Below are positions 4,016-63,332 of a stretch of DNA of 64,000 nucleotides, one piece after another. Under the pieces are notes generated by a model. The model was not told the origin of the DNA and ran no database searches. It worked only from the letters and a program-made list of their open reading frames with translations. Source of the DNA: Octopus vulgaris (taxonomy: Eukaryota); NCBI GenBank assembly GCA_951406725.2, contig OX597819.1, forward strand, positions 74,152,001 to 74,216,000, in the 5' to 3' direction. The position numbers were made by a program, and so were the translations under genes. Each line of letters starts with the position of its first letter. Positions within the stretch are counted from its first letter, which is position 1.

Positions 4016-6928
4016 TTACATAAAGGATTGTAGAGTATTTTGAATGTGGTTTATATTTTCATGAAGTGTATGGAGTGTAATTATGGTAAACCATCGCTGC
4101 TTGGTTATTGGCACATCGTCCGGTAGCAAAAGACTGTCATCCACTTCGACATTTTGTTTGATGTTTGAAAATATCTGAAATATATGAAAAGAACATTGAA
4201 AATAAGAGATACACATTAATTGATATATCAACACGCACACAAACACACACACACACACACACACACATAAACACACACACACACACACACACACACACAC
4301 ACACACAGACACACACACAAACACAAACACGCACACACACACACACAAACTCGCACACAAATGCAGACACACGCGCTCACGCATGCAGTGGCAGCGGCCA
4401 ACGGAGCTCTCAGTCCACACAGTACCAAGTTATATATATATATATCCAAAGGAAACCCTACGTGGTGGAGATCTAAACATGGTCAATGTAGCTATTTCCC
4501 CCTACATTCAATACTATAGAGACATTTACACGCACATATCATATATCACATTTACTAATACTAACAATATACGCACACATCTTATATACGAATTTAGACA
4601 CATATGCACACACACGTATATATTACGTATAACATTTTGATAGACTATGTTATATTGTTAAATTAGAACGGTTCAAAATTATTCTAATTGTAGTAATTCC
4701 TTCAAATAATTTGACATTCTACAAAGATTACCATTTCTCGCGTTTCTGTCTACATCATAAAAATGAGGAAAGTGTGCAGAACGTAAGCTGATTATCGTCT
4801 GCACGAAGTATTTTACGACAGAAATCTTAGAAACCCTGAAGAGATGTAATTTGTAATCTTTTAGTATTCATGAAACACAAGAATACTTTGAAAGAATGCT
4901 TCGAAATGAGTATATATTACTCCGAGGGAATCTAAGGAATAGCACCATTGATCTTTGACAACGGTTTCTGTAAATAAACAGACCATATCTTCCCAGATCA
5001 ATTCTATGAGATATATATTTAATACATTCCGATAAACATGAGGATATTTTGGTGCTGTTTTATTGACCAGGGAAATTATCAACATTAATTTTTCGTGAGG
5101 AAATGAAAGAGAAATCGCGTGAATCTTCATCTAGGAAAATATATTACGAGAATAATACTTACTGGTGATTCCAGAAAAAGTATCGTATCAACCAGGTAAG
5201 AAAGTGTTTGTTTTAAGTAACAATAAAATATGGCATCAGATGTGGGAGTGAGTTTAGAACAGGCAGCGGGATAATGACACTCTCTCTGTATACGTTTGGC
5301 AAGGGCACACAGCTGGTCATATTCTTTTTCCGTCTGATTCTTCAGCACGGTAACATATTGACTGAGGGTTGCAGACATATTGGATAGAGCAATCTGTAAT
5401 AAAGAATTGTGAGAAGCTTGAATTTTATTCGACACTGATTGAGATTTCTTATAAAATATAGAATCGAATTTAGATAGAAAGTGTATAAATATTTCAAGAA
5501 AATATGTTTGATAATATGTCCATACCTTGACTAAATCTGTCTGCGCGATGGTGATATTGTCTTGAATGTAGAGCTGAGGGAATGTAAGTTCCGTCTGGTT
5601 GAGCAGCATATGAAGAAAGTGAGGACAGGATACCGCAGAAGCCATTGGAGTGTTGTGGCACTGTAGAAAAACACGTGACATATTATGAGTCTGAGATTTG
5701 GACAGATAGGATTAGAAAACAATGGAGTAGAAGTCCGTTTACAGCGAACGAGTAGTTATAAATATTGATCTTTATGAGAACCTTATTAATTATTATGTGG
5801 GTAAGTAATATATTATTGGAGTGGTAAAAGAAATACTAATGATGATGATGGTGATGATGATGATGATGATGATGATGATGATGATGATGATGATGATGAT
5901 GATGGTGATGATGATGATGATGATGATGATGATGATGATGATGATGATGATGATGATGATGATAACAATACCAAGAATAACAATAATAATAATAACAATA
6001 ATATATGAAGAAATAAATGTAAACTTACAAAAGAATGCAAAGTAGTGTTCACAGATATTGAGGCCCTTCGAGCCGCGTCCAGCTGAGTTTTTATGTTATT
6101 TATTGGTATCGCTGTAGGTTTTATCGATGCTCCCTGGATGAATGAAGTCCAGACTGAGATACACAGGACCAATATATATTGCCAGTCTACGGGAAAATGG
6201 AAAAAAATATCATTAAGGAACATTTGGAAGGAAAGGGAGACATTGAAGGAATTGTTATTATTAAAAAGAAATAAGTCGTTAAGTCGCTGTTAGTTTTTCA
6301 CGTGTAGTAAACAATGAGCTGAACATTTTGGAACTCAATAAACGATATTCACAAATATTTAACATAGTTCCACTAAATATAAACCATAATTTCTTGTGTA
6401 GTGTGTTAAAGAGAAGTGAATAGATACTTGGCTGAGTGGAAGAAGGCAACGTTTTAAGTGTTTTGCTGTTGTTTTGTTCTACCATAGGAATTGAGTGCGA
6501 TAATTAAATAATAGAAATAAAAACAATGCACTGCACTGTGATGCTTGTATTCAGCAGTAATAAAAATAGAAATATTCAAATTAGGGAAACAGGCGATATT
6601 TTATATATCACAGGAAAGACGAGGCTATTTAAAAGCACTTATATACATATATAGAGGCATATCAAGATAGATAGATAGATAGATAGATAGATAGATAGAT
6701 AGATAGATAGATAGATAGATAGATAGATAGATAGATAGATAGAGAGATAGATAGATAGATAGATAGATAGATAGATAGATAGATAGATAGATACATGAAT
6801 GGGATAGATAGATAGATAGATAGATAGATAGATAGATAGATAGATAGATAGATAGATAGATAGATAGATAGATAGATAGATAGATAGATAGATAGATAGA
6901 TAGAAAAATCATACTTACAGTTATTCAT
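4016..6928 (-). CDS. G1: secreted helical cytokine-like protein, 274 aa, 4 exons
   Basis: Exons 6919-6928 (ATGAATAACT|gtaagt), 6029-6186 (cccgtag|ACTGGC..TCTTTT|gtaagt), 5163-5660 (ctacag|TGCCAC..TCACCA|gtaagt), 4016-4174 (tttcag|ATATTT..ATGTAA). The 825 nt join into one open frame. Signal peptide [22 protein letters not shown]. Function is inferred. Confidence 0.88.
5835..5962. repeat. (ATG/CAT)n microsatellite in intron 2 of G1; length-variable equivalent in intron 2 of every complete copy
   Basis: Directly visible; source of the poly-S and poly-M ORFs. Confidence 0.95.
6665..6904. repeat. (GATA)n microsatellite in intron 1 of G1
   Basis: Directly visible tetranucleotide array. Confidence 0.95.
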
Positions 6929-7031
6929 TTTGTGTGATTACTCGTTGTGAAAAAGGTTTTGAGAGAACGTCATGTTGTATTTCCTTTGCTTGTTACAATT
7001 TATTGTGTTTAAGTGACGATGGAATATCGGC

Positions 7032-60800: not shown

Positions 60801-63332
60801 TGGAAGAAGGCCCCTTTTTTAGAGTTTTGTTGTGTTTTGTTCTGCCATAGGAATTGAGTGCGATAATTAAATAATAGAAAGAAAAACAATGCACTGCAAT
60901 GTAATGGTTGTATTCAGAAGTGATAAAAATAGAAATATTCAATTTAGGGAAAGATGCGATATTTTATATATCACAGGAAATACGGGGTTATTTAAATTCA
61001 CTTATATACATATATAGAGGCATAGATATATAGATAGATAGGGATATACATACATATACATATATATATATATATATATATATATATATATATATATATA
61101 TATATATATATATATATATATATATATATATATATGTATATATAGATAGATAGATAGATAGATAGATAGATAGATAGATAGATAGATATGTGTATGAATG
61201 AGCTAGTGTGATTGCGTGTGTATGTATGTGTGTGTGGGGGGGTGTCATTGTCCCTCCCTCTTGAGTACCGCTTGACGACCAATGCTTGTGTGTTTATATA
61301 CACGTAACTTAACTGTTCAGGAAAAGTTACAACTGAATAAGTACATAGCCTTCAGAAATAAGTCTTCGGTTTGGTAAATTTGACTATAAATTCTTCAAGG
61401 TCGCGCCACAGTATGGCCGCAAACTAGCGGGCTAAAAGAAGTAAAAGACAGAATATATGTATAAATATATATATATATATATATATATATATATATATAT
61501 ATATATATACACTCACACATCCACACACATACATACTTACGCGCATACTCGCAGGCGCGCGCACACACGCGCTTGCGCCGGTTCGCGCACGCATACGCGC
61601 CGCATGCACCTCGCTCTTGGACCCGACGAGACCTCCCGCTCGTTCCTGGGACCGTCGCTTGTCGTTGGGTTTTCCCACGCCGTCTCCGCGGCACCACTCT
61701 TCCATCTTCCCCTCAGCTGGAGTCCTTTTTCCTTAACCCCCCCTTTTTTTGTTACACACACGCGCACACATATACACACATTGCTTAAATATATACATTA
61801 CTCTCATACACATTCAATCTACTCGCCATTAATACTACCACGACACTGGACACACACACACACTACTACTCAACACACGCTGGCACGCTACATACGCCCC
61901 CACCCCTTCCCCTCCCTCCCTTCCTCCTTCCTTCTTTTTCTTACTACTGACCACTATCTGCTAGCCTACCACCGTCTCGCCCTACCTCACACGCCTACAC
62001 ACAGACGCACACACTAACACATACCTATATTTTTTGTTTTTTTATCTCGCCTCACACACACACATACACACACGCACACGCACACACTCACACATACACA
62101 CACATCTGTTGCGTTACCAATCTTGTCTCCACTCTTTTGGTTTTAAAAACCTACTTTGCTCTTGTTATCGTAAACTTCCGCCTTTCACCATGTGTAACTC
62201 GTAAACACCAGTCGTTTTTTTCTCTATCCCTGTTGCCCGCTTTGGGATCTTTCTTTCCTCTCTCTTCCTTCTTTATGTTTCCGACGAAGAGCTCCGCTCG
62301 AAACGTCATACCTTCCTGCTTCCATTTCCTGAGCGCCTATTAATAATAATACTGTAATTGTTCCATTGTTGTTGATTTTTTGTTTTCCCGTTTGGATTAA
62401 ATTATATATATATATATATATATATATATATATATATATATATATATATATATATATATATATATATATACATACATACATATATATATGATCGCCATGT
62501 TGATTCGCTAGCTTCTGCACGCATTTTTTTTCTCTCCTTGTTTCTCTCCGTGTTTCTTTTCTGTGTATCTTTCTGTTGAAGAGCGTAGGCTCGAAACGTA
62601 AAAGACTTGTTTTATTTATATTCCTGAACGCCATACTAATACAATTGTTCGTTTGTATTCCACCTGCCTTCGTCTTTTGTTTATTTTCATAAAGCTTCCC
62701 GTTATATATATATATATATATATATATATATATATATATATATATATATATATATATATATATATACACAGGTGGATAAACGATTCGATTCTAGCATGTT
62801 TAACAAGTACTTTCTCACGACAATGTAATCTTTAATCTCTTCAAGATATCCTTGGCCTGAAGATTAGCCGGCGGTATACACCTCATTTGGATTTACCACT
62901 TCCGAGGTTTCACTCGCTATCAAACATATAGCCCGGATTTTCCTTCTCCATTCTGTAACTCTTGTATTCTTTTTCGCAAACTCGGCAAGCCTGGTTGCCT
63001 ACCGTAGAATATAGAAAGAACTTTTTCCTTCGCGTCGTTTTCGATAAAGAAAAATAATCCTCAGCCTTTCACCTCAATACACCACTATTGTTCTGAAAGT
63101 TGTTTTCTTATATTTACAGCGAATTGCTTGAAGTTAACTGTCTTCCTACACCTCAATCCCTGGATCTTATATGTATGTGTGCGTATGTGTTCCTATGTAT
63201 GTATGTGCTTATGTAGGTATATGTTAATGTATGTATATATGTATGTATGTATGTATGTATGTATGTATGTATGTATGTATGTATGTATGTATGTATGTAC
63301 ATAATGCCGACCTCATACTTACAGTTATTCAT
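57845..63332 (-). CDS. G9: secreted helical cytokine-like protein, 274 aa, 4 exons
   Basis: Exons 63323-63332, 60393-60550, 59611-60108, 57845-58003; canonical splice sites, open frame. Promoter has TATA ~63436-63442 and kB variant GGGATTTTTC 63466-63475. Confidence 0.88.
58284..58771. mobile_element. Penelope-like inverted-repeat insert with a degenerate hammerhead in G9 intron 3
   Basis: Imperfect inverted arms ~58284-58430 and ~58638-58771. Motif TAGAC-CACATGA-stemII-GAAAC-ACGT-GTA-GTCTA at 58563-58647. Confidence 0.6.
61515..62700 (+). mobile_element. (TA)n-flanked insert in G9 intron 1 with two minimal hammerhead-like motifs (Penelope-like remnant)
   Basis: CCGACGAAGAGCtccGCTCGAAACGTC at 62281-62307 and CTGTTGAAGAGCgtagGCTCGAAACGTA at 62573-62600; the second has stem I TCTTT/AAAGA. 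Absent from other copies. Confidence 0.55.

Follow-up and report, generated by a model that had tools for sequence, protein, structure and literature searches.

Organization of the gene array

The sequence analyzed in this work, referred to here as the window, is a 64,000-nucleotide (nt) stretch of the 2.8-Gb Octopus vulgaris genome (contig OX597819.1; G000:C6:74152001-74216000), which has a guanine plus cytosine (GC) content of 34% and is built of gene-unit repeats that are 85–96% identical. Based upon exon matches, nine units of a gene encoding a predicted secreted, cytokine-like helical protein are present between positions 4016 and 63332, seven of them with every exon and two partial ones flanking an assembly gap. 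An earlier sequence-only reading had described a nine-copy array here, and this count holds for the units in the window; however, the whole array is larger, extending over ~73.98–74.29 Mb of C6 with 32 exon-2 matches. Exon 3 was found at 30 array loci, 18 of which were scored as intact by a script that overlooked variant first exons such as that of copy F. The proteins from the intact array copies are 86–100% identical, and 15 of the 18 sequences are distinct.

Within the window, six copies are intact (A, C, F, and H on the reverse strand, B and E on the forward strand), in agreement with the earlier count. Copies A (4016–6928, −; exons 6928–6919, 6186–6029, 5660–5526, 5393–5163, and 4174–4016), C (22021–24850, −), and E (33506–36367, +) are intact five-exon genes for proteins of 230 amino acids (aa). 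Copies F (42608–46284, −) and H (57845–63332, −) are also intact five-exon genes, the former using GC as the donor of its last intron (intron 4) and the latter having an intron 1 of 2.8 kb. Copy G (49104–52132, +) possesses every exon, but the G of its exon-1 donor is lost and Cys130 is replaced, and it is likely decaying; the final ~44 bases of its exon 5 recur three times in tandem downstream of the stop (window 52100–52230). The two partial copies, D (28037–29957, +; exon 1 plus the larger part of exon 2) and D′ (30058–30639, −; only the promoter and exon 1), are truncated by the assembly gap of 100 N (29958–30057).

For the greater part of the array, successive genes lie on alternating strands, which places them in head-to-head pairs. 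The gap is also the endpoint of two inverted array blocks of 99% identity, one of 39.3 kb (G000:C6:74064921-74104137 versus 74142823-74181957, 99.1% identity) and the other of 20.8 kb (G000:C6:74123487-74144214 versus 74182058-74202782, 99.5% identity). Because both blocks stop at the gap, some 8–9 units possibly derive from the other haplotype or from duplication during assembly; the blocks may be either a true palindromic duplication or a product of the assembly. Additionally, Tc1/mariner transposase remnants lie between tail-to-tail copies (window 761–1556, 19362–19807, 38639–39063, and 52449–53390), the last of which retains a 313-aa frame in which DDE_3 and HTH_Tnp_Tc3_2 domains are present. 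These remnants were duplicated together with the gene units and possibly seeded the array.

Exon plan and the third intron

The corrected gene, described here for copy B (+), consists of five exons with intron phases 1,0,0,0 and encodes a protein of 230 aa. Its tiny first exon (10403–10412) supplies 10 coding nt ahead of a phase-1 intron and gives the same N-terminus as P0003, an NCBI model that matches copy B at all but 3 of 230 residues. Exon 2 (11907–12064) encodes the signal peptide and predicted helix A, exon 3 (12357–12491) the predicted A-B linker, exon 4 (12624–12854) predicted helix B, the Cys-rich B-C linker and helix C, and exon 5 (13775–13933) the predicted C-D linker, helix D and the stop. 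The sequence-only reading had proposed four exons with phases 1,0,0 and a 274-aa protein. The four-piece join does give an open frame of that length with GT-AG junctions, and the phase-1 first and phase-0 later introns were correctly recognized, but the 132-nt GT-AG intron 3 (12492–12623), which in copy B is in frame and stop-free, was missed. Of the junctions proposed for confirmation by RNA, those at 12064/12357 and 12853/13774 were recovered as GT..AG skips by one contig each in run X2 and in none of three other runs. The RNA status of run X2 is presumed, and its low contig depth of ~4–5, a poor measure of expression, was not counted.

Several lines of evidence indicate that the segment 12492–12623 is an intron. 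It is bounded by GT and AG (GTATGG...TTACAG) and, when translated, supplies the VWTYYQT...FLSKL portion of the 274-aa protein; its GC content is 25%, versus 35–46% in the exons. The 18 intact copies have 3 silent and 21 replacement variants in this segment, as against 45 and 85, respectively, in the exons, which corresponds to a ratio of nonsynonymous to synonymous polymorphism (pN/pS) of 1.77 versus 0.55 (Fisher p 0.03). In three copies (g02, g04, and g15) a frameshift or stop occurs in this segment only, exons 3–5 being whole (exon 2 of g02 was left out of this check and no exon 1 was found for g04). Distant paralogs contain a homologous intron at the same place, 1085 or 125 nt long, and one of them retains the exon lengths 135/231/159 exactly. 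The insert is seen in none of the 14 homologues of alignment A1, the 230-aa database models P0003 and P0004 omit it, and the match of X2 contig 8 ends exactly at the donor (12491) with 6 letters left over. In view of these observations, the five-exon, 230-aa protein is very likely the main form.

The alternative in which the 274-aa protein predominates, carrying an additional helix where helix B begins, draws upon results that count against the five-exon plan. Of the 25 copies in which the segment has its full length of 132 nt, 24 keep it in frame and free of stops, X2 contig 9 runs unbroken across the acceptor (12514–12769), the joint 12491/12624 itself is in no contig of the runs aligned, and two database predictions (P0001 and P0008) keep the segment. 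However, at a stop probability of 5.6% per variant, the 34 variants should have produced ~1.9 stops, versus one observed, and hence selection is not required to account for the open frame. Against the composition and variation of the segment, the copies broken in it, the paralog introns, the insert-free homologues and the end of contig 8, we regard the 274-aa protein as distinctly improbable as the main product, but it may exist as a retained-intron isoform. Exon 3, encoding the A-B linker, is skipped in frame in the database isoforms P0029 and P0016 from O. bimaculoides and Argonauta; as all later introns are of phase 0, such exon-3-skipping variants are possible.

Predicted protein, relatives and comparison with known cytokines

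The protein is predicted from its sequence to be secreted, with an N-terminal signal peptide and no second membrane segment; 19-residue windows with a hydropathy above 1.5 start at residues 5–8 only. Cleavage is predicted near residue 23 and would leave a mature chain of ~207 aa (23.4 kDa), in place of the ~252 aa suggested earlier, and the extra helices proposed for the longer chain resulted from the missed intron. The mature protein contains the six Cys and five N-glycosylation sequons previously noted, and both N-glycosylation and up to three disulfides are predicted.

In the structure model, four long helices, A (residues 32–59), B (97–129), C (153–175), and D (201–229), are bundled together, and the A-B and C-D linkers are long as well. 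This confident model superposes on IL-11, G-CSF, IL-6, LIF, and CNTF across the whole domain, the outcome that the sequence-only reading had anticipated, and together with the phases 1,0,0,0 it makes the helical-cytokine assignment stronger than it was for the four-exon gene. Like the class I long-chain cytokines, the octopus gene has five exons, a tiny exon 1 and phases 1,0,0,0, and its mature chain falls inside their range of 170–210 aa. The later introns of vertebrate IL-6-type genes are of phase 0. The IL-6 gene itself has five exons, and intron 1 of IL-11 lies seven bp past the ATG (PMC3271213). Of the 14 rows having a residue at this position, 9 carry Trp206, which lies near the start of helix D and is estimated, by counting back from the aligned ends, to lie about one turn from IL-6 Trp157, the aromatic hot spot of site III at the start of helix D (PMC7378365). 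From the model, a cytokine fold is highly probable, and by predicted fold and gene plan these proteins would constitute a cephalopod family that is new among class I long-chain helical cytokines.

A number of results weigh against this assignment. In the top superpositions, identity to members of the vertebrate IL-6/gp130 family and G-CSF (IL-11, IL-6, LIF, CNTF, CLCF1, IL-23p19, and IL-27p28) is 8–17%, and the Foldseek E-values are weak (best 0.024, none <0.001). The fold comes from prediction, and modeling from one sequence alone gave a predicted local distance difference test (pLDDT) score of 40.5. None of the 15 family members matched a cytokine Pfam family (including IL6, IL11, LIF_OSM, CNTF, and GCSF) at E ≤ 1, although Pfam hidden Markov models of vertebrate cytokine families need not detect relatives across phyla, and a search of PDB sequences gave nothing below E 0.2. 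The B-C linker (130–152) is long and Cys-rich, whereas that of IL-6 is short, and the octopus family has a six-Cys pattern of its own. The octopus genes also differ from the vertebrate ones in forming ~20–30 tandem copies in divergent pairs. Lastly, a fold shared with cytokines demonstrates no function.

The same comparisons bear upon the view that these are interferon-like antiviral cytokines of the class II helical type, amplified in the manner of vertebrate type I interferon clusters. Phases 0-0-0-0 and a product of five helices characterize interferon genes (bioRxiv 10.64898/2026.05.30.728932), as is the case for the class II fold of type I interferons and the oyster CgIFNLP, whereas the octopus genes have phases 1,0,0,0 and four long helices. 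The Z scores of class I chains are 5–6 units above those of class II chains, and the strict GAAANNGAAA pattern was not found in the copy B promoter. An interferon proper is therefore very unlikely, but the octopus protein could work in an interferon-like manner via a class I receptor.

Relatives were found by sequence search in O. vulgaris, O. sinensis, O. bimaculoides, Argonauta, and Sepia pharaonis. The first six homologues were all Octopus proteins, and every named relative is annotated only as "uncharacterized" or "hypothetical"; there were no bivalves or gastropods among the named matches. One of 18 hits in a 1.84-billion library, the long repeat protein P0022 (E 1.5e-6), was discarded by eye as unrelated. 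Older paralogs are located on C6 at 71.1, 74.30, 124.0, 124.8, and 131.4 Mb, and decayed fragments occur at other sites. In a tree of 26 rows (18 database proteins and 8 of the 18 intact copies), for which the bootstrap was not fully settled, a group uniting the array copies with proteins of O. sinensis and O. bimaculoides had a support of 98/99. In an inverted paralog pair (L006 and L042, G000:C6:71.14-71.17 Mb), the last exon continues into a long minisatellite derived from the helix D coding sequence (TFHQLLSTLV-like units). Other loci noted were exons for a surface protein of the Ig-Ig-FN3 type, which may or may not be a cytokine receptor (L044–L047, G000:C20:57.276-57.306 Mb, −), and a 779-aa frame of the long interspersed nuclear element type (L054).

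These genes could also encode a cytokine-derived product secreted in bulk by a salivary or venom gland or as part of an egg coat, seminal fluid, or mucus, with copy number serving as dosage. Proteins of glands commonly expand by multiplied copies, and the ~32 near-identical units, the five sequons and the lineage-restricted sequence would all fit such a role. However, no toxin, enzyme or structural family was matched in Pfam, PDB sequences or folds, and the single-copy paralogs keep the cytokine-type exon plan; we thus consider bulk secretion improbable.

Among invertebrates, the Domeless ligands Unpaired 1–3 and the putative helical factor, both of Drosophila, are likewise secreted ligands or candidates in a gp130-like receptor pathway (PMC7378365, PMC2248247, PMC13203501). 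None of the sequence searches run on the octopus family, which did not include a direct comparison, gave a match to Unpaired, and unlike Unpaired the family was seen, among named matches, in cephalopods only. A 229-aa cluster of the ESM Atlas with 114 members, whose commonest phylum is Mollusca, resembles the octopus protein in length and in feature scores (0.87–0.88) and bears a weak IL6 mark (PF00489 in 11%), a lead based upon features without alignment or E-value. Together with a cytokine-like cluster of Arthropoda in the same resource (191 aa, 53 members), it provides further candidate invertebrate helical cytokines.

Promoters, possible function and significance

A kappaB-consensus site, GGGATTTTCC, is present in copy B at 10260–10269 (+), 143 nt upstream of the ATG; a TATA-like box (10293–10300, +) follows 33 nt later, 110 nt upstream of the same ATG. 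The same site occurs at 7062, 24986, 27894, 30773, 33363, 46418, and 48970, i.e., in eight of the nine window units, copy H having no exact match, and in 22 of 25 array promoters. A second kappaB-consensus site lies between the divergent copies A and B (8920–8929) and in the other three divergent pairs (26545, 31824, and 47690). Any such site was obtained in 22 of 3000 shuffles of one promoter. Two considerations lessen the force of this motif as support for induction by NF-kappaB: the array copies share one ancestral promoter, so that the sites constitute a single observation (p ~0.007) and one event rather than 22, and the site was present in none of the three distant paralog promoters examined. 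Two orphan promoter fragments without exon 1 were also observed (window 16103–17956 and 40046–41720; 96.5% alike across 1.7 kb), the second of which contains a kappaB-consensus site at 41249. In O. vulgaris haemocytes, NF-kappaB pathway genes and IL-17 are expressed (PMC4199593), JAK-STAT terms are enriched in the white body of O. maya (PMC6522055), and Aplysia possesses JAK, STAT, and SOCS (PMC9334734).

The exon structure, phases, copy arrangement and promoter motif are read directly from the sequence. Predicted secretion combined with an IL-6/IL-11/G-CSF-like fold points to a likely immune signal, and we favor the interpretation that the genes probably encode a secreted, glycosylated long-chain helical cytokine, induced by NF-kappaB and acting through a gp130/Domeless-type receptor and JAK/STAT. 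A class I receptor/JAK-STAT ligand is a likely identity for the protein, and an immune-inducible role is somewhat more likely than not. Upon infection or injury, NF-kappaB/Rel would activate the divergent gene pairs, the secreted protein would dimerize a class I cytokine receptor, and STAT would be phosphorylated in haemocytes or other tissues, with the many copies providing a higher dose and added variants. The same fold and receptor class could alternatively serve a hormone-like role in growth, metabolism, reproduction or nerve repair, as for growth hormone, prolactin, leptin, CNTF, and Drosophila Upd2, but we view this as unlikely. Going beyond the favored cytokine interpretation, we suggest tentatively that the family is the missing molluscan class of gp130/Domeless-type ligands and truly homologous to IL-6/G-CSF, with the five-exon 1,0,0,0 plan inherited from a bilaterian ancestor; one Octopus member would then have acquired an NF-kappaB promoter and expanded, like an interferon cluster, into an array of 20–30 genes in divergent pairs, with the retained-intron isoform as a second product.

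No description of the octopus family was found in a literature search. Its novelty is tempered by the mollusc cluster of the ESM Atlas with its weak IL6 mark, and also by an oyster IL-12p35-like protein that has reportedly been described. The list in PMC9756803 includes an oyster class II-like protein, and a term search of that paper turned up neither IL-6 nor IL-12. In a 2026 survey, molluscs are reported to have IL6R, JAK, and STAT and invertebrates to be without IL-6, the sole ligands named being Upd and a shrimp lectin, and IL-6-type ligands are treated as vertebrate additions (PMC13203501). The octopus genes are concrete candidates for the IL-6-type ligand missing in molluscs that have this machinery. 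Their combination of five exons, phases 1,0,0,0 and fold provides a search recipe for other invertebrates, and for octopus immunology and aquaculture they offer a candidate marker of inflammation. If the shared fold and exon plan are true, the origin of long-chain helical cytokines would predate the protostome-deuterostome split.
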